A DNA stretch of 63,570 nt, filler included, from Choristocarpus tenellus KU-1152 (Eukaryota; Protista; Phaeophyceae): assembly GCA_964200185.2 (NCBI GenBank). It is 11 parts of 11 records of this genome, joined end to end, with 100 filler letters (N's around TTAATTAATTAA, not from the genome) between each part and the next. Parts side by side here need not be neighbours in the genome. Positions count along the whole stretch, not along the records: positions 47,042 to 52,631 come from CAXNAD020010323.1; 10 more parts are not named here. One strand, given 5' to 3'. Position numbers and translations under genes: made by a program. Every line of letters begins with the position of its first letter. Positions within the stretch are counted from its first letter, which is position 1. Below the pieces are notes generated by a model. It worked only from the letters and a program-made list of their open reading frames with translations. It had not been told where the DNA came from and made no database searches. Below, in pieces: positions 9,602 through 61,262 of this stretch.

Positions 9602-9701
9602 NNNNNNNNNNNNNNNNNNNNNNNNNNNNNNNNNNNNNNNNNNNNTTAATTAATTAANNNNNNNNNNNNNNNNNNNNNNNNNNNNNNNNNNNNNNNNNNN
9701 N
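9602..9701. other. Artificial contig linker N44-TTAATTAATTAA-N44. Also at 15182-15281, 22804-22903, 28966-29065, 34458-34557, 38476-38575, 46942-47041, 52632-52731, 56787-56886 and 60498-60597
   Basis: An identical 100-bp spacer occurs ten times. Its 12-mer places stop codons in all six frames. Confidence 0.98.
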
Positions 9702-15030: not shown

Positions 15031-15849
15031 ATGCACGGGGTGTTCGTGCTTGCTAAGGAGGCAAGACAGTGTGGCTGAAAGGCAGGCATTCATGGGGAGG
15101 GAGATAAGAGCTGCAGAAACAGCGATCTCTGTGGCACTCGTCTGTCTGTCCCCTCCCCACCTTTCCCCCCCCCCCCCGTATNNNNNNNNNNNNNNNNNNN
15201 NNNNNNNNNNNNNNNNNNNNNNNNNTTAATTAATTAANNNNNNNNNNNNNNNNNNNNNNNNNNNNNNNNNNNNNNNNNNNNCCCTGGTGTAGACCCCACC
15301 CCCATCCCCAGATACATTGGGTCTCAAACATTAAAATAAAAAACGCTTGCCAACAACTCAAGTTTTTTTTATTACGTCAGAGTGTATGAAGTATCACCAT
15401 TCAAGTATGAACTCAGTGGAGAGGGTGAACTAGTATGACTAAAAATTCACTTCTGTGTCCTCCATTCCGGCTCCTACTATCCTTCTGATCTTTCTTCTTG
15501 TAGAGCACCTCGATTCTTCTGTCCTAGCAACAATACGAAATTTTCGTACGCAGCTCCTCAGTGCAACACCTGGCAGTTTGTGATGAATCAAAACAAATGC
15601 CAAGCGATTCTTCTTGATTGTCGGGTATGAAAAACAGTACTGCACAGTGATACTGATAGGGGTTTGTTTATCACAGAGAGAGTGGTGGAACTTGAATCAT
15701 TTTTTTTCATTTTTAAAATTATCATTTCTGATGACTGCTGACTATTATGCCGCAAGGTCAGATACAAGTAGTATATTTTCCGTTCTTTGCTACACACTCT
15801 GTTGTTCTACAAATAGGTTTTGAAGTGGGTTTGCTTGCCCCCGTGACCA

Positions 15850-22011: not shown

Positions 22012-22903
22012 GTGTGTGACACAGTTGATGCTGTCTTTCTCTTGAGGGGATAGGATGGTGTGGGGTGGGGTGGGGTGAGAAGGAGCACTCTAAGAATTTA
22101 TTCTTTGCTCATGGACATTTTTTTTCTAAGGCACGGATGTGATGTAGTACACACAGTTTTATAGCCTGTACTGTGTGTTTGTGTCATGTGTTCCAGCAAG
22201 GGATACAATCTGAAGAGGTGGGGTTGAAAAGGGAAATGCTTGTGCCTCCAGGTTGCATGGGGCAAGGCAAGGCAAGTCTGTTGGGGGAGGGGGGGGGGGA
22301 ATATATTTCCTGTGGCAATTGCAATTATAGGAGGGCCCAAGAAAGTGTTAACCTTGGTAGGCTGTACTTTTGGTGAGGCTTGTAATGCATGGAATGATAT
22401 CTTAAAACCAGGAAAATATGACTGCCCGGAGAGAACGGTTGATGACCCGAAAACTCCTTTCCCATGGGTGATTCATTACACTTTCTGGTACTGAAAAAAA
22501 AAGAAAAAAGTTTGAGTGCCATTTCGCATCCAAATGGAAATAAATAAATGATCCTTTATGCCATGCTCTTTATTTCGACCTTTTCGGGTTTACACATATT
22601 CATTCCTATGCCCACAATCCCCTCCCATCCTCTTCCCTTGGACCGTGTTAAATCTCCCATAAACTGCATGCTGGCTTGCTACCGGACAACATTTATTTAT
22701 TTCATTTTTCTGGCGAACGGCTTGTGGCGTTGGTTTGGGTGTGGGGGCATGGGGGGGGGGGGGGGGGGGTTGGTTGGGGGGGGGGGGGGGGGTGGGGGGG
22801 TGGNNNNNNNNNNNNNNNNNNNNNNNNNNNNNNNNNNNNNNNNNNNNTTAATTAATTAANNNNNNNNNNNNNNNNNNNNNNNNNNNNNNNNNNNNNNNNN
22901 NNN

Positions 22904-23449: not shown

Positions 23450-24577
23450 GTGGTTGTTGAGGAAAGCGGTGTTGAGGAATATGTTCATCTAAGATCTACT
23501 GAGGACGAGTACGAACACTTGGACTCAACCTTACCTCCTCAGGCTCGTGGAGGAGGTGCTGGGGTAGATACTGAACCCACAACAGAAGAAGGTGTTGAAG
23601 GTGGGGTTGAAGAAAGGTCCCAAGGCGCCACAAGTGTTAGAGGCACCAATGGTAACGATGCTGCCAAGGAAAGTAACCCTCAGGAGGCACCAGAAAATGT
23701 TGACATATCAGAAAGAGACAGTGCTGGGAGTGATAAAGAAATACCTAGTACAGTTCCAGAGCCAAGTGCAGAGAGAGATGACAACAAGAGCATCCCCTGC
23801 AAAGCAGGAAAAGATGAAGCCAAGGAGACCGGCAAGGAAGAAAGCAGTGTTAACAGGACCAAATACGAGACCTTTCCCAGCTGGTACTCCTCTACTGGTT
23901 GCCCTGCTTCTTACCTTGGACATGTGCGGTCTCCAGTATGTTCACCACGGATCTCGCCTCATCCGCATGGGTCTCCATATCGTCAAGAAGGAGTGGGTGG
24001 GCGGGAGGACTCCGGACGTAGGGTTAGTCCAGTTGGTAGGAGAAGGTCTGGGGGTGGTAATCAGGAGACCTTGAGGCAGGAGACAGATGGCGAAGGGGGA
24101 GAGGGGGCAAGCTTCAACCAAGCACCTTGTCCTCAGGAGGTTTGGGATACTTTTAAAAACCTAGGGGGTCAGAGTGGTATGGAGGGTGGAGGTATTGAAG
24201 GTTGTACGACCCAAAGCATTGACGGGTATAGCACTGACACAAGCCTTTCTGGCAGAATTGCGGTTGGAGACCCCAGTCCGAGGAGAGGAGATGATGGATC
24301 GGTCAACATGGGTGTTGGTTCTGTGGTGTTTGGGATAGACCAGGGGGAGGACAAGACTGGGGGTGAGGAATGGTGGCAAAGCAATGAACTTGGAGGGGAG
24401 AGGAAGGGCTACAACATGGGGAGGGAGGAGTTGGACGCCCTTATTGGACAAGCTAGAGGTTGGGGAGGGGAAGGGGAGCGGGAGGGAGAGGTGGGGAAAG
24501 GATTTGAGGGGTCTGATATAGTGTTGAATGAAAATAGTGAATCAGTGTGCGGTTTATCGACGGCATGGATAGAAAGG
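23450..24577 (+). CDS. Large internal exon of a low-complexity G/E/S-rich protein of unknown function
   Basis: A 376-codon open frame bounded by CTAG| and AG|GTAGG; no recognisable domain. Confidence 0.5.
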
Positions 24578-26524
24578 TAGGACTCCCCCTTCCCCTGAGG
24601 TAGTGCAGACATGTTTTTTTTTTTCAGATAGACGTGAGAACAACATCCATCCTCAGGAGTCTGGTCGAATTCCTCTCTCTGAAGGGATGCGCTACTGAAC
24701 ATAGATGATGCGCACTTCTCGTACAACTTTGTTATCAAATGCCCTGAGGCCGGTCAATGTTAGCCAGGCTTGGGGAGGGGGATGCTATAGGTGGTGTTGC
24801 TGCAATGGAACCGAGACCCTTCAACTGTAATGGCAACTGTGGTAATAATGGTTTTAATAGGATGCATTCTATTTCCTTCTTGCAACATAACTCTCACTTG
24901 ACACAGACACTGCTCCCCAAATAACGAAACAAAACCCTACAGTTACGTACTAGCATCTCCAATTCAGCTGTTGGAGCAGGTAGAAAGTGTTCTATGACCC
25001 CAGATCTTGCATGCCCAACAATGTGCGGTTTTGTGGTCCCAATGTTTGACGGCGATCTAGTGACCACATTCAAGTTTTTTCATCATGAGCACAGTAGTGG
25101 ATCATACTCCATTGGTTTGGATAGTGTGTGCCTTGGCCTGTCCGTACCTCTTTTTTTCAAACTCACAAGTAGTGATATTTCTCCAAAAGGTCTCCTTTCA
25201 TCAAGCTCCTATCCTCGTAATGGTTCCCTCTCTCCCTTCCTAAACAAGAGCCCGTCTCCACCAAACAACAAATCAATCTACTCAATACTACCTTCAACCT
25301 TTAGAAGTTCGAGCTTCCTGAGAGATCGATGACTTACCAAGATGAGGGAGAATGATGTCAAGGAGAACATGTAACTCCACGACAACCTAACCCAGGTTAT
25401 AGACCTACCTACTGGTACACATAAGAGACAGCAATAAGTGAGCACTAGGTTGGGCGGGGATTGAGGTCACTGGCCTACAAAACATATGTGGGGTGATTCG
25501 AAAACTCTCACTTTTGTAGCCTCATGAGTATGCATGGGGAATGATAGGCAATGTCAGGCAGGAGTAGCTATGGTGCCGAGGAAATATCTGTTCCACCTGG
25601 GAAGGGGGATTGCCAACACTACTTGAGCTACTCGTCCAAGGTGGAGATGTGCTGTTCTATTTTTACTGTATAAGGAAGGGGCGGCAGGGATGACAGCAAG
25701 GAAAGTCAGGAGTCAGGGTTAACTTGATATAGTGCACTGCGTTCAGTAATACATGCACTTTGAAGATGGGCTGTGGAGAGTTGTGGTATCTCGTTCCTCA
25801 CTTAAATGTTTTGATGTGAAGCACTCCCTGACTACAACGATTGCAAGTACTATCAAAATATGTATGAAATTTTGTCGATATGCGCAATTACCATGTACTT
25901 CGAAATACTACTAGAAGAGTCAAATTGTACGTACAGTTTGATGGCGGTGTTACCAATTGCTTGTATTACTACTGTATATGTCAGCATGTTAGATATGGAA
26001 GAGAGTGACATTATTTTGAGGTTTGTGGGTAGTGTTGGTGCGTAACAGACAGATCTACTCACCCTTGTTGTTGGAGTGCAAATCTTCCTACTGGTGGTAC
26101 TACTATACTACTACTTCCAGCCTTACTGTTCAATCTAATACATCAAACCAACCATTACCACTCCGAACTCATATAACATATACTAGTACATGTGTCCTAT
26201 GTGGAGCTTACTGCTTCTACAGAGTAGTAGCGGTAAATAGCAGCAAGAAAATCTTGCGATGCACTCACCCGCATGTCCTCCCAGACTTAGAGGTAGGTAG
26301 AGATACCTCCAACAGATCAAGATGAGCTAGAAACTAGAAGAAAATCTTGGAGGGGGTCTTCAAGGCCTAACCTGGCTCACCTAAAGTTAGTCTGTTGTTT
26401 CTAGCATGAGTAGAGTGTACTTGTACTACTTCCGTACAAAACATCTTGAGACCGCTCCACTTCTTGTGCAGTCGTTCCTGACTCAAATTATCGCACGCTC
26501 TAAAAAAAGTTCATGTTGCTTGCA

Positions 26525-28473: not shown

Positions 28474-31181
28474 CCTCCTCAACCTCCCTTGTCGCTATCA
28501 CAAGTCAAATAAGTCAGTGATTCAAACAAAACAAATAAACGCATTAAAAGCACAAGAATGAAAAGAAAAAAAAAACATGCACCGGCTCAGGCCAATCAAA
28601 ACCCAAGAACCCATTGCCCCCCCCCCAAGCAACCACAACAGGGGAGTAGATAGAGGCAGGTTACAATCCCGCCTTCCATCTTATACAACCAAACCCTCAC
28701 AGCTCACAAGCTCCAGCAACACGCCCAACACATCTTCTGAATCCAGCCTTAAATCACACTCCCCTCTAACTCAAATTTGTTCACACTCTTGCATATAAAA
28801 AAGAAAGTGTGTTGCAAGCCTCTCCCTCCCTCCTTCACTCCCAAAGTCAACAAACTACACTCACTCCAGTTATCATATCCCCCCCAAGCCTCCTCATCTC
28901 AGCCAGCACCAATGGTACGCTCGGGACCATCATTAAACCCGATTTGCCACCACTCTTTCCCCCCCNNNNNNNNNNNNNNNNNNNNNNNNNNNNNNNNNNN
29001 NNNNNNNNNTTAATTAATTAANNNNNNNNNNNNNNNNNNNNNNNNNNNNNNNNNNNNNNNNNNNNCTGGGCACAATGGCACGAAGTCGCACTGCTCTCCT
29101 CCCCAAACTTCCCTTCGGCCGGTCACTCTGGTCCCCCCTTCTTCGCCCACCGTGACCAGGCTTACCCACAGACTTCGTCATTGTACCACCTGGTAATTGA
29201 CTCGCCACTCTCTTCCTGCTTTTCTGAGGCAGCAGAGACACTGCAGAGCAGTGCTCCGACGTGGTTGAAGATCCAACCATATTGTGTGGTAATTCTTTCG
29301 ATGCATCTTCTCTCAGCGTCAGTGTCTCGGCCGCGTGGTCCATTGCGCGATTTGATCATGCTGCTATGCCACAGTACACACACACTTCCTCGTCACCTAA
29401 CATCGCACCGACTATCACATGCTACTTGTTTTTTTGTCTCCTCCCGACAGAGAAGGTGCCGAGGGTAGATCCAGGGGGCAGAGTGACCTTGATGGCTCTC
29501 CTTGTCTCACCGTCGTGGTTCTTGTTGCTGTATGATTCACACGTGTGTGTACTCACGGCCTGTCTGCAAGTGGCGCTAAAACGTTGTCCACAAATCTTCC
29601 TTTTTTGTTCTCTCTTTCCCCAAGGACCGTTTTCGACCAGGAAGCTAACACGAGCCAGTTTTTAGCGGGGAATTCAGCCAACCACTTCATTTTTGTACCA
29701 TTTGAAAATGTGACCAAATTTGCGCGGGAGATGTTCCCCAGCGTTTTTTCCATTCTTTGATCGGGGCATAGTTCCTGTTCACTGGAGATAGTACATTCCT
29801 GCATACAAGTCTTCAGCACATCATGTCATAAGTTTTCATTTGATATTTTCATTGTATAGTTGTGGGAATACAGTGAAAAAAAGCAAGATTGGTCCAGAGA
29901 GTGAAAATTGTACGTTATCTTTGATCCATTAATGAGTATGATAACATCTGTAATTGGTTCACAATAAAGCGTCCGAAATAACCCGAAAGAGTTCAAATCA
30001 CTATCAAGAAAACGTCCGTGTTGGGAAAATATCAGAGAAGACAGTATGACCTCTGAAAAAAGTGTCTGAGAAATGTTAAGAAATCTTCGAACAGCAATGG
30101 AATGGCGGAAATAATTTCCGAAAAATTCTTAAATACTGTTCAAAAAATTAAAAAAAGAAGTTGGAATTTGGGGTAGACCATCATATTGTCGAAACACATG
30201 GAATTTCCTTCACACATTTACACTGTAATAATCCTGACCAGACTTCCCCACTTTGTAGAAATAATGATCACACTTTCACCATGGAGCATACCCCATACAT
30301 ACCCCTCAACTTCACCTCACTCCCCGTCCCTCGTCCTCTCGCTTACTATACAAACGCTGTACCTGGACTACACAAGAATAGCATTATTTAGTAGTAGTGT
30401 CAACTGTAACAGCTATTTTCAGCATGTTCTCGGTTGTCATTACATCAGAATGGTGTAGTATAAGAGTCAACACAAAGGGGACCTTCAAAATTTTGTAGGT
30501 TTCCTACCTCTTCTGTATTTCTTGAACCCACCACTGTAATGGTACATACAGTAGCAGTAGTAGTACTGTTAAGAGTCCAACTACAAGGTGTTCGAATTTT
30601 GTTCTTGGTCGAATTGCGGAAGAATAAAGTTTGGACTCAACCCACAACAAGGATACACATGAACGTGAAACACCGATATACCAAGGGCACTCTATCATAA
30701 AATCTATAGTATGAAGTACGTTGCCAAGAACACACATGAAGAAAGTACCCCCCCTAAAGAGACCGAGGGCATCTTGAAAATTCGACTCCAAGACCTGACT
30801 GCCCTTCCGTAACTAGACCAAAGAATCTCCTCCCTGCATCAAACGTCCTTACCCTTTCTCCCTGCTTGCTCTTCCTTTCAACCCAAGTGATACTACTTGC
30901 TGGGCATCTGACGGCATCGCAGGTCTGAAGAGCGAGGTTTTTCATCTCGACCAGTTCTCCACCTCCAATAGTACCACCTCTAACCTGATCCCCCCCACAA
31001 GTATATCCTTCGACATCTGAGCGACATATGTGCCCTGAGACTCTGATTTGCAACGATCTTTTCCGATAAACAACACACTTGGTCGCTTGAACATGCTTTT
31101 TCGGATAGTGCTACTCTCCCTAATTTATCTTTGATTTCCTGCACCCCTCCATCCATATTCCCTGTTGCCTAGTAACAGGGC

Positions 31182-34452: not shown

Positions 34453-34557
34453 CATACNNNNNNNNNNNNNNNNNNNNNNNNNNNNNNNNNNNNNNNNNNN
34501 NTTAATTAATTAANNNNNNNNNNNNNNNNNNNNNNNNNNNNNNNNNNNNNNNNNNNN

Positions 34558-37904: not shown

Positions 37905-39479
37905 GAATTTTTTATTTATATATATATATATATTTAAAGGCTGAGAATAGAAAGAATATACCGTACATTGAACCAACCCCACCTCACCTCATTTGCTCAT
38001 TCACTCACGCAAGGAGCAACTAAGAAGGTCGAACAAGAAAGCACTTGTCGTTGATATCATGAGGAGGACGATAACCGTCGCACCTCACACGTGGGATGGT
38101 CACCAGACAGCAACTAAGAGACCTGACCAACATGTGGAATGAAGCTACGGACTCCCAAGGCATACATCCTGCAATATCCTAAAAGGTATGCCCAGGCCGC
38201 CATCGCTAGTACATATACTTGTCCATGTAACCAGGCCCCTCGCAAATATCGGAAGCAGTGATTACTGCTTCCACAGTAAATGAGGCTTATTATATCCCAT
38301 ACCATACGATTTTCAAACCCCACCTGTTTTTCCGAATCCTACTCAAGCGGTATTCATGAGTAACACATGATCCACCTCTCACGAAATATTTTCCAGAGAA
38401 ATCCTTCTGTAGAATTAATAAATGATCAGTTCAAAGTCATTCGCGCACATCCCCTTCCTTCAAAAACATGATTAANNNNNNNNNNNNNNNNNNNNNNNNN
38501 NNNNNNNNNNNNNNNNNNNTTAATTAATTAANNNNNNNNNNNNNNNNNNNNNNNNNNNNNNNNNNNNNNNNNNNNCGAACAATATGTGCGCCTGTCCCCA
38601 AGCTCTCCGAAGAACCGGACCTCCTGCTTGCTCCACTTCTGATGCTCCCAGCATCCAAACTGTTTCCCCTCTCTCTGAAATATGCCCTCAACATGGGTTC
38701 CATAGGACCCATAGGACCCACTTCGACTGGTACGCCCCCAGCCGGAGACCGTGTGCTGGGCACAGCGGCCTGGACAACGGGATGATCTCCGTCGCCGACT
38801 CTTTTCAGATTGAATCATGAGATTGCCAACATTTCTTGACAACTCCGCTACCGTCGCCATAAGCTATCTGAAGTCTTGGATAGATTGCCCCTCGGAAGGA
38901 ACAGGTTCCCGCAATTCTTGAATCGCATCTCCTCGTGTAGACATGANNNNNNNNNNCCAAAATCATCAAAGAGGATAAAAGTCATAAACCCAGCGAGATT
39001 GAATGGTGTCTGTAGAGTTAGAAGAGTCTAATCGAACAAAGTCCTGGGTTGGTGCTGTGCTTAGAATAATCGTGCGTGGACTTCAGTATACAATCCTCCA
39101 AGATTCGAAGGAGAACGAGATCGAATCTAGGTTGTGGACACTTGGACAAAGCAAGAGGTGGCGCATAGAGTATTGAGAAGAAGGGGGGAGGTGCGTTATA
39201 GTGTTCAAGGAATAAATAGCGGCTTTGAGAAGGACAGGGTATCCATCGCAGCCCCTGACGAATTGTTTGGAAAGGTTAGCTGAGCAGACGGAGAAGAGTT
39301 GTTTGATTGATGTATTATATTTTAGTTGTCTAACCTTGTAGCAGACACGCTCTTTTAAACAAGTAATAACACAGGTCTAATCCTCAACGATTGTATAATA
39401 TATGATACGCTTACGACCCTGACTGATAGCAATGTATCTGATACCGCTATCTAATTGCATAACTCATGGAATGGAAAGT

Positions 39480-42400
39480 GCATGAACATGGTAGTAGTCG
39501 GACACCAAGGCAAGGTACACTGGTGCATAAATCACTACAACCTGCAACTCTACCCGTACTTCAACAAAAAACCGAAACGACCGAAGCCCTATTTCAATTG
39601 GTGGGCGGACTCGAAATCGCTTTCGTCCCCCACTCTGTGAGCTTAGGGTATGCCTCGAGTACCTGGCGTTCCAAGTTTCGGACTTCACAAGGCTCCAGAA
39701 GATAGCCTTCCTCGCCTGGAGTGCTTCCACATGCTCGGGACAACGTGTTGCCTGGCTTCCCTCCACGATCGCCGAGTTTAACCTGTGTGGGCTCGAGGAC
39801 GTTGCATTCATCCCTGAACACAAGAGAAACGGCCCCTTTACCGGCCTTGATGAGCCTGAACCCATGGTCGTATATGACTTGGGTGAGGATTTGCGTCTGC
39901 ACTCGATACTGTGAAGAAGCAGGTTTCGTTGCTGATCGTAGGAGCTCGGTAACGCACGCCTCCATGAAGGCTTCAGTGATCCCCACATCGGATGCATCGC
40001 CGGAGTCGGCCGCGTCCTGTGTGATGCAATCCTCATCACCATGAGATGATCTTTCGTCGTCATCGTCGTACCTCGATGTAGATGAACACGGATTTACCTT
40101 GGCAGAAGTGAAAACGTTGTCGAAGAAGCCAGGTTCCAATGCGCTGCCATGAGGACCATGAGGCTGTTTGAAGGGTCTCAGTCGTCCAGCACCTCCTCTC
40201 ACCCTCTTCTTCCTAATTAGCGTCCTTTTCCCCTGTCCTTTGCCCTTCTTGGAAGGCTTGTCCCTCGGGGTTGGGGTAGGATCAGCATGGACGAGGTTCT
40301 CACTTCGCCTCACAGTATGGTCGTAGATGTTCCCTGGCACTTGTGCCTTGTCGCTGCCGCTGCCTACTGAATGGGCGTTCGGTGACATAAATGGGTCACT
40401 CCTGACAGGCGTGGACTCTGAGTCCTTGCCTAGGCGCCCCCTCACGTCCTCCTGTGCAAGTTTCTCTGGACATGACAAAGCGTTACAAACGGATCGGCCC
40501 CCATCGCCTTCAGAGTTGTGTTCCAAGGGTGTAATTGTACGCCTCCCCCCTCGTAGAGTCCTGCTTCCCGTACCTACTGCAGGGCTAGGCGATGGGCTAT
40601 CTTGTTCCTCTTCATCACCTGGTGGGTCGGGTCCTCCACAGGGTATAGGCGTGGATATGCCACCAGCTACCGGTGTCTTCACCAGTGTAAAATTGCGTAA
40701 GGTGGAGAGTTTGTCTATCAGGAGTTTGATACGATCCGGATCTAGGTTGTTCCCGAGGGCGGTGCATGTGATTACCATGCCTCCTGGTCAGGTCTGGAGA
40801 AGGGCGACTCTCTCGTGAGCAGCGCTCGTTTCGGACCTGAACTTCTCGAGGTCGTGCTCGGGTGTGTCGTTCTTGTCTGGGGTGATCACGATGGTTGTGA
40901 CTCTAGGTATCTCTGTGGTGGTGGAGGAGTAGGCAAAGGACGTGGCGAAGTAGGGGTCAAAACAACGGGAGGAGGTGTTAGCGTTACGAGTCAAGGGATG
41001 AGATAGAGGTTGGTGAAAAAGAGTAAGCGAGGCAGGATACAGAGGAGGAGGTAGGGGCTGAGCAAAGGATGGATGGATAAGAGTACTAGCGGTTCGTTAA
41101 ATTTAGGCGGATATTCGAGCCCATAAAACAGGAAGACAAATAGGGCTGGTAACATAGGGTGAAGAGGATGCGTATAGGACTAGCATGTAACTGCGAGATA
41201 ATTTCCCTACTTTTGCCGGGTTCTGTCGATCGGTACAATACAGTGAACGTATTAGTCAATCTGTTCGACGAGCAACTTCACAACATATGAAACTGGAGAA
41301 CCCTGTGACAATTTATGTTGTGAAAATGTCAAACGCCGTAAGATCTGTTAGAGTCTAGGTAGTGTGTTTGGTGTAGGGAACCATGTGTGGATGTTAACCT
41401 ATGGCAATGTTGTACAATGATGTAATTGCTTACCTGCGTGTTCGTCATTGGTGTTCAGGGTAATGCCATTAGAGCATTTGACGTCCAGGTATTTTGTACC
41501 CTCCTCCACATCCTCCCTCAACATGGAGATCCCTTTTCATCTGTGGATTTTACGGGTTACATTGATGTGTGCGATCAGGGCATTTATTGTAAGGTGGCTT
41601 GATAGGAACTGAAATACGGTGGAGAGATGAGATGATGAACCTCACACACAGTTAAGTACCTCGTCGCTGAGGAGATATTTTTTGGTAGGAGGACCCTCGA
41701 CTGAAGACCCTGCTGATGGACCATCGGCGTAGGGGTCTATCCCGAGCTTGTCTTTCCTTTTTAGGTCGTCCATAACTTGTATGGCGACCTCGAGGACAGC
41801 CCTCTCGATGAGGACATTCTTGATGTACATACGTCTCATGTATGCCAATTCGACTTTCCAGGGTTGAGACGCCCACTCTCCTTCGCCTGGGTGGCAGACG
41901 CCGTGTCTGGATCGCCGACCCCTGGTCTATTCTTCTTCCCCTTTCCTTTTGTCTTCTTCTCTCCTTTGTCCTGGTCGGCTGGGGGCCGTTTGTTCCGGAC
42001 GCCCCTAAGAGTGTGGGAGAACTGTCATGGAGAAGCACATGGGTAGCGGAACAGTAAGTCACATGGATGACATGGGTGTCTGCCTCGCGAGGCATGAACT
42101 AGACGGTGAACATTGCAGCTGTTGCAGGATCAGGAGGGGGGTATATGCATATTCATCCATACGTTACTTGAATCGTCATGGTCAAAATCGACTTACCCAT
42201 TCCTCTGGAAATGTCTCTGTCCCGACAACATACGTCAACGAGAGTGCGTCAGTAGGCAATTTTTTGGCAGCCTGTTCTGAGAAGAGGTTGGTAGCCACCT
42301 CGACAATGTCGCACTAGCGACGACCTTGGGGATTCTCCCCTCTAAGGATGGCTAATCCGACTTCAGCGAGGACATCGGTGCACATTCTTGCGAAATAGTG

Positions 42401-46883: not shown

Positions 46884-47107
46884 GACTCAAAGTATCTGGG
46901 GGGGGGGGTGGCGGCTGTCCATTTGGGGCCAATTTTTCCATNNNNNNNNNNNNNNNNNNNNNNNNNNNNNNNNNNNNNNNNNNNNTTAATTAATTAANNN
47001 NNNNNNNNNNNNNNNNNNNNNNNNNNNNNNNNNNNNNNNNNTTTGAAAAAATCCATATTAAGCCTAAAAACCCACAGTAGTATTTGAAAATGGCCCAGAA
47101 CCTTTTT

Positions 47108-47138
<31 letters not shown>

Positions 47139-47168
47139 TACTCATCTATTGTCTTTCTCTATTCCAAG

Positions 47169-47877
47169 AGAAACTCAGGCAGTGTTGGAAGGGCTCGGTG
47201 TATCAACAGACGTTTTGACTAGGGTGGTATTTCAAGGACAGCATCACATGCACGGGCTGTTGGAGAGTACAGATGCGCGATTGAAGGAGGAGCTCTCTGT
47301 CTTGGTACGTTGGTCCGTATGTGTCCCGTGTTCTATAGATCACGCCTGATGGGCAAACCTAGCCGTCCCGTAGGGTTGCCGTAACATTGGTTGAGAGTGA
47401 TGTAGGGGGTTGTGTGATATATAAATAAATATATATATGTATGTATATATATGTATAATATATTTGTACCCCTTTTTGTTTCATTTTCTTTAATTTTTTT
47501 GTCTTTTTATTGTACAAGTTTTTTTTTTTTGTGTATGCATGCATCATCTATCTCGCTATGCATATAGGTGAAAGTTGAAGATCCTGCTCCATTGATCTGT
47601 GGACTGAATTGTTTGAAAAACAAAAAATACGGTGGTCAGGTGTCTTGTTATTAAGCGTTTCCCTTACCTTGCACCTCCTCCTCCTCCCCCTGACTGTAAT
47701 ACGTTCACTCACGGTGGTGTGTGTGTTTCTTGTTGTTGGTTAAGAGTTTCTCACTTTTTGGACGCTTTGTTTATTTTTTCCGAGTAGGTCCCGATGGAAA
47801 TGTGGCAGGATATGGCATCACGCAGTCGGGAGATGGCTAGGAAGTGCGGGGAAGATAGGGCCAGGCTCGCAGCACAG
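47169..47877 (+). CDS. SbcC/Rad50/SMC-like ATPase, two internal exons (47169-47304, 47788-47877)
   Basis: The spliced sequence ETQAVLEGLGVSTDVLTRVVFQGQHHMHGLLESTDARLKEELSVLVPMEMWQDM matches the SbcC/Rad50 Q-loop segment leading into the coiled coil. The GT-AG join is phase 0. Confidence 0.65.
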
Positions 47878-47894
47878 GTATCCAAAAAGTAGCA

Positions 47895-47975
47895 TTAGGG
47901 TTAGGGTTAGAGGGTAGGAGTTAGGAGTAGAATAATTGAGGTTGGGATTGGGTTTGGGATTAGGTTTAGGGTTAA
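47895..47975 (+). repeat. Degenerate TTAGGG interstitial telomere-like tract (similar tracts near 6235-6345, 6693, 6863, 11744)
   Basis: TTAGGGTTAGGGTTAGAGGGTAGGAGTTAGG... Confidence 0.6.
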
Positions 47976-48280
47976 CAGTTAGAGGTTATCTATTGGAGTT
48001 CTGAAATTGTGTGTGTTTTAAATGTGAAGTGGAAAGGAGAGTGTGTAACTGAGTGAGCCTACCTCTCTCCTTTTTCGGTTTTCTTTTTTTGTGTATTTGA
48101 AGTGGTGGGGCAGTTTTTTTTTCCACTACTACTGTAGTTGTGCATTTTGTAATTTATTTCCTGTGGAGAGATTGTAGAGTTACCAGGATGTTTTGTGCGC
48201 GTGTATAGTATGATACAATATGATAAATGCTATCCTATGCTGCAAATGCGTTGAATGTAATCCATGGCAAATAGAAGGTA

Positions 48281-48650
48281 GTGGTGGAGCAGGAGTGTAC
48301 CAAGAGAGAAAGGATAAGCAGGGTCACCGCAGTTCTAGATGACTGTACCATCCCATTCCTGTGGTACCTGGACAACACTCTGGTCGATCCGAACATGCAA
48401 TCGTATTACCTGGCGGTGGAAGGTACGAGCAACACGGGCAAGTCAGTGTTGATGTCTGCTGTTTCGGATGCTACGGCAACGGTACAGTCGTCTGTACTCT
48501 GCTGTCGTGTATGAAGACGGTAGCCTCACACCTCAGATACTCAGAATCATATGTCAGTCTAGCTAAGATACTCAGTATAGTAGTATGCCCAGATGTAACT
48601 CACTCACCTTTATCACCGCCTATCAATCTCGAACACGAAAGTAGCAACCA
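48281..48650 (+). pseudogene. Decayed viral-type P-loop NTPase (SF3 helicase-like or packaging ATPase-like)
   Basis: Walker A YLAVEGTSNTGKSVL; after a frameshift, a Walker B-like AVVYED and a motif C-like LTFITA. No introns seen. Confidence 0.5.
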
Positions 48651-48691
48651 GTGGTGACTGGGCAATGATTGGTAGTGGTCATATCGCTACC

Positions 48692-51600
48692 ATGAAGAAC
48701 GCGATGGCATACTCTACCAACCAGCTACCTACACCTGTGCCAACCGCTTCCTGGCTGGTGAAGGAGAACACAAAGCGCTTTGCAGTCGTCTGAAGCGGTC
48801 GTACTGCTATCGTTTCCGGTATGGGAGCCGCATCGATCACTGTGATGCAGAAGATGAACCTGCTCGAAGCTGCAGTGTACTCTCGTCTGTGCTATGCTAC
48901 ACCACCAAACTCATTCAGATGTGCCATGCGAGTACTGCTGTTCAATGGAGCACCGGACGTCATGAAGTTCTTTGTTAAGGTCGGGGTCGGTACCTACCCT
49001 GATGAGGAGTACCAGGCATTCTTATCTCTGTTCTCTTTTATGGGCACTACAGTGCAGGACATGATATACAACTGCAAGGGCATTTTATTAATCGGCTATC
49101 GTTAGTCCAACCATAGACGACGGCTTCCGACAGTATGTTGGTGGGTTCATCCTGAACGATCCTCAGACACTGTCACCCGTACATTCAGTAGACCTGTCGC
49201 TGAGAACCGTGTGGAACATGATTGTGGCGAATAAGCTCATGCCCAATCGATCTGAGCCTTCGGGTGGCAGAAGAGACAACAACCGCATAGCCAGTTCCAT
49301 CGGATCTGTTGTCGGATCTTCCCAGGCATAACAGCTACTTCTGCAGCTCTCTTGCAGGCCTCGCTTAATCACTCGCGTTCGTACCGCACACATTTTCAAA
49401 AACACAGCTCCCGGACTGCAAAAATTACTGCCTATAGGCTCACCAGCAGCATCAGTTGCCTGGAAAGTCGTGTCAATGATGTCAGTTCTTGGGAAGACAT
49501 GCAACCTGTTGTTCATGTCACGGTCAGTTGCTGGAGTAAGGTTCGGAGTGACTGCCACTGACATAGCTACGGGAACGTACAGCATCTTTGCGACCAGAGA
49601 GACTGCGAAATTCAGATAATACATTAGGCTCAAGTGTGGAACTGTGTTCGGATGAGTGCAAGCTGTGAATCAGTCTACTGAAGCTACGGAAAGCTGCTGA
49701 CATCCAGTCAAACGTACAGGATGATCACTGCTGATTTGGTCACATCCATGTCCAGAAGCATAGACCACGTCCTGAAGAGGTTGGCGGCCATGCAGCAGAG
49801 GCTGACATCAACGCCGGACGTGAAAGAACTTGCGCATGAGACAGCTGCACTATGCAAGATAGTCAAGTCAGTTCTGTCGGCAACAACAACGACCAGATCT
49901 ATACCTGGTACCCTGCACCATGAGTGCCAACAGTTTTCATTTCTGCATGAAAGCTGTTGACATTGACACAGCTTTCTGGGCAACTAATGCTGCTGGTGAG
50001 CCTATGGCCAGTAATTTGGCTCTCTTGGACCTGTCTGGTGGACTGAACAGCTTACGAACAATGAATTATGCCATCGTGTCTGCCCTAATGATCGACATGA
50101 CCGGCCCAGTGAAGCATGTTTCGCCTTGTTCAAGCCAGAGCATCTAGCATAGCATTTCCAGTGGACAGCAACATCCACGAGAACGCCACTTGAACATTGA
50201 CACTGCACTGTCAGCTACGTCTGCCGGAAGGTATTGTTGTTCGTGGATAGTTGGAGGGCAACCGTGTTCCATCTCATGGTAGGATGCAGACGAGTAGAGT
50301 GGCAACACTCCAGTTGGGTACGGTTGGTCAGATAGGTAGATTGTTTCGATATCGTAGCACGTGCATGCAGCAAGGTAGTTCAGTGCAGTGTATGCCTGTG
50401 GATGATAACGAGCTAGCCTTGCATAGTGCGCAAGCATGTAGCTGTCAGAGGCAAGTTCATGAGACATGAGTGAGTTAAACGACTGTTTCCACTACTTGGT
50501 TGCAATCAGTCGTGGAGCCCAAGGTATGACTTCGTGTTCGTACTTGGTCCACACTTCCCAATCGATGAAGTTGTGTTCAGAAGTTGGTGATCCACCAGGT
50601 CTGCCATTCGGTGAATGTACTGCTCATGGGCCTACATGCCTTGGCTGTTTCAGGCAGCATGACGGAGTTGTTCTCTATCCAACCGAGCTGTGCTTGGTGT
50701 CTGATGGTTACATGGGCGGCATGGCCAGAGCTCAGCTTCAGTTCTCCAGGGGTAAGATAAATGCAGGTCTAACAACCAAGAGCGGTGACCTTTGAAAAAA
50801 AATAGCAGGAACACGTGTGAACACGTGTGGACGGGCGGGGGTGTAGAATGGTCATCTGCCCGTCCAGAAGCCTGCAGGTCGGTCAGGTCGGTCTACCTGC
50901 GTATGTGATGAGTGGAATGGCTGTTCCGTGTGCAGGTGACACTATGAATGCTCCATTGCTGGATGATGTAGTCCGCCACATCTACCGGTGTGAACTACGA
51001 TGGGGCGTCTGAAATGTGGTGTTGTCTACTGACTCGTTTGCCATGCTTATCAATTGGTGGGATACAGCCAGCGACATATCAATGATATGATTCCGATGGC
51101 AGATTGTGGTCGCATGCCCATTGCTGATGGCTGTAGTCGAGGAAATAACACTATGTACCTTTCGATGCAGTCTTGTGCACCATTCCAGGCCGACTATGGT
51201 GGGGATGAAACGATGATATGGCCGGTGACCAGCCGTACTGGCGACGAACGAGTGTAGCCAGTACAGGGTGACCAGAGAGATGTCGTTCAGTCGTTGGTTG
51301 ATACTCAGCAACAGCTCACTCACTGCCCTCCAAGTACGGGTTCTGGCCGGCCGTGTTCCGATACCGTGTTTTGTGTTTTGTGTTTTTGTTTTGTGTTTCT
51401 GTGTACCATGTCAAGTGTGATGTTCAGCAACCCTAGGGCAGTGTGACGGACTCGCTCGGTCTGGTGGAGGAGACCTGTCTCAGGTGGAGTCAAGGTATCG
51501 GGATCATTAAGTTGCTGAAGGGTCCACTGAATGACAGGGACTAACTACTACGGACAGTCTGTGTCTGTTGGCAACAGAAAGGTAACTCGCATCAACAGAA

Positions 51601-51850
51601 AGGTAACTAAGGTGTCACGCCAGCGCATCAACAGAAAGGTAAGTCGTCGTCGGTGGTTACATGAGCAAGTGTGTGCTCGAGCTGCTGCGTCCATGTATGG
51701 GGGGATGGGTCTCGAGCATGGTGTGAACGGAGGACTTGACGGGCACTTATACCGGTCAACCAGTGACCTACCAGACATCCTTCCTCCCTACCACATCTGT
51801 ACAGTGCTTTGAGATCTGTATGGCAACCCATTCATTCAAGGCTAGTTTGT
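48692..51850 (+). pseudogene. Decayed single-chain fused beta/beta-prime two-barrel DNA-directed RNA polymerase of a virus-like element
   Basis: Colinear RPB2-like motifs: IGY..PTIDDG..GGFILND; TNAAGEPMASNLAL; SNIHENA; GNRVPSHG; GTVGQI; KHVA..K; MSELNDC..RGA; C-x2-C. These run in frame into RPB1-like motifs: KSGDL*KKIAGTRVD..RMVICPSRSLQVGQVGLP; LINWWDT..ISMI; CAPFQADYGGDE; GLTTTD; GGYMSKCV; GQPV. Confidence 0.75.
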
Positions 51851-52170
51851 TGCCTGTGGCGGGTGTCTCCTTTCGTCTTCTATGTTACTTCGAGTGGAGA
51901 GGAGGGACAAAAATGCGCTGTTTTTTGCTAGTGTTGTTGTGGTCAGTGTTAACATGATATTGAAGTTGAAGTTGAGTTTGGAGGAAGGGCTTGAGATTGT
52001 GGAGGGGCTGAGAGAAGGGTATGAGATGGGCTTGTTTGTTTGTATTTTTTTTAATTTTAATTTTTCTCCCCTTTTTGGAACTTCTCATTATCGTTTTTCA
52101 TCGATACAAAAACAAATGAAAAAACAAATTAACACAGAAGATTCTTCATCCTCAGCGAAATTTGTGGCAC

Positions 52171-52392
52171 TAAATGTGCACTACTATTTCTGTGTATATA
52201 TATTGATAGAGTGAAATAGTATGTCTCTTATTTACAATAAAAAAATCTAAATGTGCACTACTATTGTATATATATACTGATAGAGTGAGGTAGTATGTCT
52301 CTTATTTACAATTTAAAATCTAAGTGTGCTACTATTTCTGTGTATATATATACTGATAGAGTGAGTTAGTATGTCTCTTATTTACAATTAAA
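52171..52392. repeat. About 75-bp AT-rich tandem repeat, 3 copies
   Basis: TAAATGTGCACTACTATT..TATATA..TGATAGAGTGA..TAGTATGTCTCTTATTTACAAT repeated three times. Confidence 0.9.
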
Positions 52393-53763
52393 AAAAAATT
52401 GATACTGACCCTAACACTCAACCTATTCAAGACCGTTTTTTTTTTTCTTTAGTATTAAAAAAAGTGATTTCATCGATCTCAAAGAGAAACAGTAACACGT
52501 TTTGCGTAAAGAACGGTTCCCTCGTGTTTTAAATTGTCTTACAGAAATAGAAACTCTTATTTGAATGATCACGGCCACGATGAACCCCTAACCCTATGGA
52601 CTTGATTGAATACAGTATACCAAGGTGGTACNNNNNNNNNNNNNNNNNNNNNNNNNNNNNNNNNNNNNNNNNNNNTTAATTAATTAANNNNNNNNNNNNN
52701 NNNNNNNNNNNNNNNNNNNNNNNNNNNNNNNTTTGTCTGTGCCTTTTGGCTTTTTTGGGGCTTTTGTTAATTTTTGTGTTTTTTGTGTGGGTCTTGTGGA
52801 TGAACGGGTGCTTGGGCTTGAGCGTAGTCACGACCCCCCAACCCTCGGGAGAAATGCTTGAAAACGCTCGGGGATGCCACAGAGATTCGGACTCGCTGTG
52901 CTTCTTTACACCTTCCGGCCACTTCTTCCCTCCATTCCAGTCCCTTATCGCATCCCCTTTTCTTGTTGCAGCATTTGAGCGGTTCACAAATACCGCCCCA
53001 CCTTCCTCGCCTTGCTCATCACATTACTGGTCAAAATTATCTACTATGACAAACAAAACAAACACGCAATGGACAAGGTGGCATCCCAATGACCTCCCTC
53101 CCCCACCCATGCCACACACCTCACTCCTCTCCCGTCCCTTCACTTTTTCTTCCCATCAGATCCGTCGAACCATTCGGTAGAGGATTCCCACCCCACAAAC
53201 CACACGCGGTACTAGGCACCACAATGATTCATTCTCTCCGTCACTGAACCGACGACTTGGGCATTTTTTACCATGGAATGGGGGACTCCATAAGGGCAAA
53301 AATTTCAGCGCTTGGACTGGGGCTTGGTTGCCAGGGGTGACACTTGACGCAGTCTTAAATCACCACAACTTGAGCCTCGGGTCTTCGGACAACTTGATCC
53401 CCTTTGCCGACTTGACCCCCAAAACTTCTGCGGTATCCTTAACGTGGCCGTGAGGGTGCACTTTGCGCCCGAGATAAGTTAATGGAGAAGGGTAAGCACG
53501 CCTACCCATAAACTAGCTTTGCATCTACACTCGTGACATATCACGCGAGGTGAAGGACAACATCCATTCAGGAATATTTCGAGATTGGAAGAAAACGTTA
53601 GCACTTCAGAAAAATAATCTGATCCAACGACTTGCCCCACAACTAATTGAACGTCCAGTTTCAGTCAAGTCGACTACTACTCGATCTAGCAACGGAAGAT
53701 CCGCTCCCTTCCCCACATCGGTACACGGCATGAACATCCTTTACATCCCTCCCATCCACTCAC

Positions 53764-56778: not shown

Positions 56779-56939
56779 TTCTCTTTNNNNNNNNNNNNNN
56801 NNNNNNNNNNNNNNNNNNNNNNNNNNNNNNTTAATTAATTAANNNNNNNNNNNNNNNNNNNNNNNNNNNNNNNNNNNNNNNNNNNNCCCCCCCCCCCCCT
56901 TGGCCCCTTTTTTTTTTTCGGGCCCCCCCCCCCCCCCCC

Positions 56940-60372: not shown

Positions 60373-61262
60373 GTTCCCCAAGGGACGATGAGAGGGCGGC
60401 ACCCAATAGGGGAGGGATGGAGGGAAGGAAGGTTTGGGGTTAGGGTTATGGCAAGGATGAAGTAGATTGGGATAGAGAGAGCATATGGCACCATGGGNNN
60501 NNNNNNNNNNNNNNNNNNNNNNNNNNNNNNNNNNNNNNNNNTTAATTAATTAANNNNNNNNNNNNNNNNNNNNNNNNNNNNNNNNNNNNNNNNNNNNGCA
60601 AGCGTGACTGTTAGGGCATCCTGGGGGGGGGGAGATGGAGGGGTGAGTTGGGGAGGAGGAAGTGGAGGAAAGGTCAGGAAACGTTGATCCCCCTGTTGAT
60701 TGTAGGGTGGGAGAGGAAATCCAGTGAGGGAGGCATTGAACCTATGCACTCCCTACTAGGTGATATTGGTCGCTATCCTGGTGGGCATGAAAACCAAAGA
60801 AAAGTATTGTGCTGGAAGCCAACAGGTCGAGAATGAGTAGAACATCGAGTTAGGATCATCTAGGGGCTTCGCTGTTTTGTGTCATGTAGTTGCATGTATT
60901 GCTGTGTATTGTGGGGGGGCTGGGGGTTCGGGATGGAGTAGGCGGAGAGGTGGGATTGCAAAAGGGGTGGAGGATGATCAGATGGGGCGCGGGATGGAGG
61001 GTTGGGAGGGGTACAGAGGTGAAGGTCAGAGGCATAGCCAGCCCAGTTGAAGGGTGTGTGACCAGGTAAGAGGATATGCTGCTGGTTCTATGTGGAATAT
61101 GTATGGGGCAGGACTCCAGTACGTGGGTGTGGAAGTTGAGGGGTGTGAGGGTTAGGTTCCCTGGTGTGAGAGGCTGGCTGCTGAATCCCAGTGATACCTC
61201 CTGTCCCACTGTGGATTCTCATGAGTTATTCTGTCTCCTCTCTTGAGCTTCCATCCCGGCTA

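Follow-up and report, generated by a model that had tools for sequence, protein, structure and literature searches.

The helicase relic and its setting

A 5.6-kb contig of the Choristocarpus tenellus KU-1152 genome (CAXNAD020010323.1 in assembly GCA_964200185.2, positions 47042-52631) carries the decayed remains of a gene predicted to have encoded a D5-like SF3 helicase and, 1.7 kb downstream on the same strand, what is probably a fragment of a beta-prime-like RNAP subunit. Positions refer to the window, the whole 63,570-nt stretch of DNA that was analysed, which is a pseudomolecule of concatenated contigs of ~5 kb each. About ten linkers join the contigs, and two short N runs occur besides:

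9602-9701, 15182-15281, 22804-22903, 28966-29065 and 34458-34557: linkers N44-TTAATTAATTAA-N44, with a stop in all six frames
38476-38575, 46942-47041, 52632-52731, 56787-56886 and 60498-60597: further linkers of the same composition

Because the window consists of joined contigs, neighbourhood across a linker is not established, which touches any adjacency-based finding that crosses one.

The relic and the RNAP-like fragment sit in a block of raised G+C content that occupies the whole of 48.2-51.4 kb (~3.2 kb of the 5.6-kb contig); between 48 and 52 kb the G+C fraction is 0.48-0.50, and either flank has 0.42. Searching the other contigs of the window revealed nothing resembling the helicase relic and no second copy. 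On the 5.6-kb contig itself, Rfam returned 0 matches, and no DNA polymerase, capping enzyme, terminal repeat, capsid, packaging or other element gene was seen. The longest open frames of the window lie on other contigs, at 39594-40787 (- strand, 397 codons) and 23450-24580 (+ strand, 376 codons); both are of low complexity and rich in Gly, Glu, Ser and Pro.

The relic and its motifs are arranged as follows:

48278-49096, + strand: relic of a decayed, predicted D5-like SF3 helicase gene, found with a profile of seven relatives (109.6 bits)
48422-48445, + strand: Walker A motif (P-loop) GTSNTGKS in frame mod 2, aligning with GPSgtGKST of the family
48498-48560, + strand: frame-shifted piece with AVVYED and SLTPQ in frame mod 0, corresponding to profile positions 215-238
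48577-48597, + strand: probable Walker B remnant IVVCPDV in frame mod 1, from ungapped tblastn
48707-48730, + strand: SF3 motif C region AYSTNQLP (YTTNsLP in the family) in frame mod 2

The seven-relative profile was built without the window's own row, and hmmsearch matched the relic in a single nominal frame (mod 2) over profile positions 144-409 of 485. The 143 N-terminal profile positions of the family are missing, and no counterpart to them was found upstream. By tblastn, residues 144-351 of the relative P0006 match 48281-48919 with an E value of 6e-19, and values for the relatives range from 6e-19 to 3e-14. As the profile and tblastn matches run to 49096, the relic is ~820 nt long rather than 370 nt. 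A first-pass annotation made from the sequence alone had ended it about 40 bp before position 48692, where it placed the ATG of an RNAP gene; the profile match continues well past this point. The ATG is the Met of ...HIATMKNAMAYSTNQLP..., which lies in the helicase frame 15 nt 5' of motif C.

The Walker A motif named in that annotation is real and falls within the family match, enclosed by a 79-codon open stretch (48275-48511). Its reading of AVVYED and LTFITA as Walker B and motif C fared less well: both strings are present on the + strand, and neither has the role given to it. AVVYED (48501-48518, frame mod 0) follows the Walker A piece colinearly and lies between Walker A and Walker B; VVYEDGSLTPQ matches VITGASNLTPQ of P0010, a match that is weak on its own. 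LTFITA (48603-48620, frame mod 0) has no match anywhere in the helicase family, and its occurrence in the relic is due to chance. A piece in frame mod 1 (48547-48606) instead carries IVVCPDV, which is matched by the Walker B stretch of P0006, P0007, P0005 and P0014, four of the nine relatives queried. Taken singly, these matches are weak (E 0.13-20, from a very small database), and we regard IVVCPDV as a probable Walker B remnant. The motif C stretch, AYSTNQLP, aligns in hhalign with the ATN of bona fide D5-like proteins.

Between Walker A and motif C the reading frame is badly broken. Seven stops interrupt the nominal frame (48512, 48521, 48560, 48578, 48581, 48596 and 48791), of which the first six cluster at 48512-48598 and the last is a TGA. 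Following the family through this part of the relic takes about three frame changes within 48494-48620, and the nominal frame picks up again near 48617. Walker A and motif C are thus both readable in frame mod 2, and no single intact frame joins Walker A, Walker B and motif C. The window copy is therefore predicted to be a pseudogene of its family, dead as a helicase. The same stretch was found in three sequencing runs of one study (X1-X3). Contigs of X1 and X2 carry it with 0-1 differences over 47461-49851, an agreement that does not amount to independent confirmation, since the runs come from the same study and possibly represent the assembly's own data.

Relatives and superfamily of the helicase

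Searching 1.84 billion representative proteins with the 79-aa ORF (phmmer) gave seven matches at E <= 1e-3. Five of them form one family (P0001, P0003, P0005, P0006 and P0007; best E 3.7e-7), the closest member being 46% identical over 56 aa. The other two, P0002 and P0004, were dropped as spurious, since they are repeat proteins (Cys-rich or Ig-like) whose match is to a WYLD-type repeat. P0008-P0014 were added through cluster mates and a profile search, bringing the family to roughly twelve proteins out of 15 billion; all are unnamed and encoded on contigs of 1.2-30.5 kb from Logan, ENA or NCBI. The proteins are ~450-510 aa long. Their core consists of Walker A, Walker B, an lK.lTGgD stretch and motif C (TTN), while the N-terminal ~150-200 aa have no family assignment; neither a Prim-Pol/AEP primase domain nor a D5_N domain was detected in the family with Pfam, NCBIfam or hhalign.

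A pattern scan of IMG/VR with the family motifs yielded 18 loci, all of them phage Prim-Pol/D5 proteins of 23-28% identity, and a scan with a second family alignment yielded none. Pattern scans of JGI metagenomes found no family relative, and those of the 185,579 prokaryotic species genomes of GTDB found no relative carrying the family motif. Absence from these three collections holds at the sensitivity of a pattern scan. In four members (P0003, P0005, P0008 and P0009) the helicase core is cut short or departs abruptly from the family, although their contigs measure 1.6-7.5 kb. Instead of belonging to free viruses, these genes may be endogenous copies, broken or split by introns, in the genomes of other eukaryotes.

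These relatives bear on the question of whether the relic could be a chance P-loop, a fragment of a host-type NTPase, or bacterial or phage contamination. Taken by itself, the Walker A pattern is weak evidence: the six-frame translation of the window contains GxxxxGK[ST] six times, compared with 1.3 +/- 1.1 (maximum 5) in 50 shuffles. Pfam applied to the 79-aa ORF alone returned only the generic P-loop models MMR_HSR1 and NPHP3_N at E ~0.07. The surrounding homology is far past chance, with 109.6 bits over 819 nt in a profile to which the window did not contribute. Moreover, the same contig holds spliced exons of an expressed gene (see below), and none of the prokaryotic species genomes contains a relative with the family motif. 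The phmmer, tblastn and family-profile matches refute this explanation, to which we give practically no weight.

Comparison with named families and with structures places the family, as a predicted divergent branch, among the D5/P4-type SF3 helicases. The model TIGR01613 (phage/plasmid primase, P4 family, C-terminal domain) matched five of five relatives at E 1e-6 to 9.5e-9, with scores of 26.8-34.5 bits against a cut-off of 108.7. DUF5906 matched four of the five over nearly the whole model, as well as P0013 and P0014 (E 6e-4 to 0.1), scoring no more than 20.8 bits where the cut-off is 27.6; all matches to named families thus lie below curated cut-offs. The read-through of the window copy, P0016, gave no direct match of D5 type in Pfam or NCBIfam, and the relic therefore takes its SF3 status from the family.

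Alignment of the family with 13 IMG/VR proteins that combine Prim-Pol, D5_N and DUF5906 domains (three of three tested pass the Pfam cut-offs for all three domains) gave an hhalign probability of 97.9 and an E value of 3.9e-13 over 175 columns. The aligned span includes Walker A, Walker B, the TGxD stretch, motif C and the C-terminal helical domain. For P0007, AlphaFold gave a poor model from a 12-row alignment (mean pLDDT 55.6); searched against the PDB with Foldseek, it produced 78 matches at E <= 0.001 (best E 1.6e-5). The 34 of these that were listed are all vaccinia D5, mpox E5, ASFV PrimPol or the SaPI5 primase-helicase, with TMq values of up to 0.51 among the matches listed; the SaPI5/phage proteins fit equally well (TMq 0.50-0.51). 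A language-model Atlas pointed to DUF5906 clusters (score 0.97). A PDB sequence profile search with the family alignment returned only generic P-loop/ABC matches.

The family can thus be compared with the D5/P4-type SF3 helicases (PF19263 DUF5906 with D5_N and Pox_D5; TIGR01613 primase_Cterm), for which we took vaccinia D5, MPXV E5, ASFV C962R PrimPol and the SaPI5 primase-helicase as examples. Both share the order of the ATPase core: a Walker A of the form GxSxTGKS, a hydrophobic strand with an acidic Walker B, lK.lTGgD, motif C as (T/S)TN and a helical C-terminal domain. The family differs in its length of only ~450-510 aa, in the lack of a detectable Prim-Pol/AEP or D5_N domain and in matches that stay below curated cut-offs, and the window copy differs further in being a truncated pseudogene.

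The SF3 call of the first-pass annotation accordingly stands, having been reached through wrong motif assignments and now backed by the fold search, hhalign and the TIGR01613 matches of the family. It had named SF3/D5-like profiles as the check on that call; these place the family with the D5/P4 type, and they return nothing of D5 type for P0016 itself. A first pass built on motifs thus hit the right superfamily and missed the limits of the gene and the start of its neighbour. What the follow-up brings to light is a small, unnamed branch of putative D5-like helicases.

Transcripts across the relic

Run X3 is not recorded as RNA. We infer that it is RNA from the GT..AG joints and the exon-like depth profile of its contigs, which outline two sets of exons:

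47167-47303 and 47787-47877, + strand: two exons of an expressed upstream gene (X3 contigs, depths 181 and 235)
48276-48422 and 48764-49124, + strand: two alternative exons cut from the relic (536-nt X3 contig, depth 17.3)

The upstream exons are joined from 47303 to 47787 on the + strand with GT..AG borders at a depth of 181. A 3.9-kb X3 contig with a depth of 235 starts at 47848-47877 and then continues into sequence that is absent from the 5.6-kb contig. Since this X3 contig leaves after 47877, the gene, which is well expressed, would have its next exon beyond the contig, and the block would be intronic. The relic block is thus likely to be located within an intron of an expressed host gene. 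The upstream host gene matched no Pfam family, its only match being a GoLoco-motif peptide at E 1.3. Parts of the contig are without X3 cover, for example 49178-49622. Just 5' of the relic, the intron contains degenerate telomere-like repeats at 47890-47990 (TTAGGG, TTTAGGG and TTGGGA variants); contigs of X1-X3 from elsewhere pile up there, which identifies the stretch as a dispersed repeat.

The 536-nt X3 contig represents a minor isoform, at ~7% of the main isoform by contig depth (17.3 versus 235). Its two joints, 47875/7 to 48276 and 48418/22 to 48760/4, are both GT..AG. From the upstream exons the frame of this isoform runs straight into 48 helicase-frame codons that precede Walker A (48276-48422). 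The second joint removes a 341-nt 'intron' that contains Walker A, the Walker B remnant and motif C; past it, the sequence is out of the helicase frame and ends at a stop at 48976.

The splice from 48422 to 48764, with its GT..AG borders, and the ORF that stays open across the upstream exons and the helicase-frame exon would suit a live gene, either intron-containing or domesticated by the host, in which the broken middle of the relic is simply an intron. The content of that middle speaks against this: the 341 nt removed are colinear with the ATPase core of the family from Walker A to motif C, and because this core is what is removed, the spliced product would have no NTPase. The frame also leaves the helicase after the junction and terminates at 48976, and the isoform has a small fraction of the depth of the main one. 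A live or domesticated gene is accordingly very improbable. The minor isoform is most likely splicing or exonisation noise and not domestication, and the in-frame helicase piece in a host transcript would be a minor example of the exonisation of viral DNA.

The RNAP-like fragment and the origin of the block

Downstream of the helicase relic, the block contains two RNAP-like pieces and, between them and the helicase, an inverted repeat:

50824-50904, + strand: piece 1, resembling domain 2 of RNAP beta-prime/Rpb1, RVDGRGCRMVICPSRSLQVGQVGLPAY, frame mod 1
51144-51233, + strand: piece 2, RNAP beta-prime-like, frame mod 0
49422-49511 and 49928-50017: arms of a 90-nt inverted repeat, 78% complementary and 416 nt apart, between helicase and RNAP

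Piece 1 (ORF 50821-51009) matches the Pfam model RNA_pol_Rpb1_2 at E 0.016 over profile positions 8-51 and an NCBIfam archaeal RNAP A' model at E 0.096. In the PDB it matches residues 284-311 of vaccinia rpo147 at E 0.79, fifth of six matches and behind defensin peptides. Piece 2 (ORF 51033-51254) matches RNA_pol_Rpb1_2 at E 0.051 over profile positions 124-153, colinear with piece 1, and the phage RNAP model PHROG 2987 at E 0.45. Both Pfam matches fall under the cut-off of 25.3 bits, and all RNAP matches have E > 0.01. In piece 2, QADYGGDE (51186-51209) takes the place of NADFDGD, the metal-binding motif of the RNAP largest subunit, and the second Asp reads Gly.

A read-through across both pieces (P0015) matched no Pfam or NCBIfam family, the Pfam signal being lost, and homologous protein searches with P0015 and with piece 1 (E <= 10) returned no RNAP relatives. 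Scans of IMG/VR with both pieces gave three loci, two of which were inspected and proved to be chance matches over phage portal-like or short ORFs. An RNAP fragment is nonetheless favoured because, with 24,736 models searched, it is very unlikely that chance would give a second piece matching the same model with the correct order and spacing. On this sequence evidence, 50824-51233 is probably a beta-prime-like RNAP fragment.

The 1.7 kb between the end of the helicase relic and this fragment have no assignment: no family was found in the three + frames of 49098-50833 with Pfam or NCBIfam, nor was a beta/Rpb2-like or other polymerase family found there at E <= 10. Likewise, 22 ORF pieces searched with Pfam and PHROGs gave no match of Rpb2 type and only sub-threshold matches of any kind; a very divergent beta part could escape the Pfam and PHROG models used.

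These results bear on the larger proposal of the first-pass annotation: a new class of compact virus-like element, akin in plan to the yeast cytoplasmic linear plasmids but with an SF3 helicase gene next to one for a fused beta/beta-prime RNAP. The compact spacing on which it drew disappears, as the first RNAP-like signal is at 50824 and the proposed RNAP start at 48692 falls within the helicase. A fused RNAP is without support: the searches detected a beta-prime (Rpb1 domain 2) fragment and no beta-like part. Unfused Rpb1-type genes need about the distance between ~49700 and 50824 ahead of the RVD..GR motif, so that the spacing seen here also suits an unfused gene. The same-strand arrangement of an SF3 relic and a beta-prime-like fragment in one 3.2-kb block of raised G+C would fit such an element. 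So would a helicase family that is small, unnamed and apparently free of a primase domain, and for which the scans of IMG/VR, JGI metagenomes and GTDB gave nothing beyond the 23-28% identical phage proteins. Against it, neither a DNA polymerase nor a capping enzyme gene, a terminal repeat or any further element gene was seen on the contig. Nor does the combination of genes by itself argue for a new class, since a D5-like SF3 helicase and a multisubunit-type RNAP both belong to the normal core set of Nucleocytoviricota. We consider a new compact class of this kind improbable.

The likeness to yeast virus-like elements (VLEs) of the pGKL2 type lies in a virus-like origin and in the probable catalytic motif region of an RNAP of multisubunit type of their own. 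Their helicase belongs to SF2 according to the first-pass annotation, whereas the one here is of SF3 type, and no beta-like half corresponding to their fused two-barrel RNAP was detected. The relic is, moreover, nuclear, intronic and decayed. In base composition, the part of PMC4431711 consulted gives more than 75% A/T for yeast VLEs, in contrast to a G+C content of ~48-50% in the relic block.

We instead consider it probable that 48278-49096 is a decayed, 5'-truncated D5-like SF3 helicase gene, most likely the remnant of an integrated virus or virus-like element and predicted to be dead. According to this explanation, an integrated DNA virus or virus-like mobile element would have left its D5-like SF3 helicase gene in the host genome, with the beta-prime-like RNAP fragment (50824-51233) probably derived from the same insertion. 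The inserted block would have come to lie within an intron of an expressed host gene, and a minor host transcript would use two pieces of the relic as alternative terminal exons. The finding is an ordinary dead viral or mobile-element relic and not a working gene, one more eroded fragment of this kind in a eukaryotic genome.

Within this explanation, the donor may have been an eroded giant virus (Nucleocytoviricota-like) or another large DNA virus. The best structural matches of the helicase family are poxvirus D5/E5 and ASFV PrimPol, and vaccinia rpo147 is the only RNAP chain among the six PDB matches of piece 1. Phage and SaPI5 proteins match the fold just as well, however, and the sequence models favour the phage/plasmid P4 type. 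Giant-virus D5 proteins are ~800-1000 aa long, compared with the ~450-510 aa, lacking a detected primase domain, of the family described here, and no other giant-virus marker is present on the 5.6-kb contig. Many eukaryotic genomes are reported to contain eroded insertions of giant viruses, as far as the portions of PMC12455990 and PMC10640383 consulted go. We therefore hold a giant-virus donor to be possible and, on balance, rather unlikely.

Endogenous giant-virus elements (GEVEs) and NCLDV fragments resemble the block in being foreign DNA of raised G+C content with a broken D5-type helicase and a probable Rpb1-type RNAP piece in host DNA, and their erosion is described in the consulted part of PMC12455990. 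The block differs in its size, ~3.2 kb on a 5.6-kb contig, and in having no capsid, polymerase or packaging gene. Its helicase family is, furthermore, not demonstrably of giant-virus type.

A family that is short, apparently primase-less, unnamed and missing from the scanned databases would be compatible with a small element or virus lineage not described so far. The relic could in that case be the first trace, in this host, of a eukaryote-associated DNA virus or element lineage with a short, primase-less D5-like helicase and its own multisubunit-type RNAP, and a piece of the relic would have been captured in frame as an alternative host exon. We regard this as a speculative extension that is unlikely to be correct in full. 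If the contigs of the relatives pair the helicase with an RNAP, a new small DNA element or virus lineage would be defined.

The longest open frame of the block (49163-49669, - strand, 168 codons) lies opposite a + frame with one stop and matches no Pfam or PHROG family. The 90-nt inverted repeat (49422-50017) may have arisen by local inverted duplication or by insertion of a fold-back element; visual inspection did not establish a MITE-like reading. Its arms encode a similar peptide (..D.IDT.F.AT.AAGEP..SN..) on opposite strands. Downstream of the block, at 52170-52395, an A/T-rich unit of ~76 nt is present in three tandem copies.
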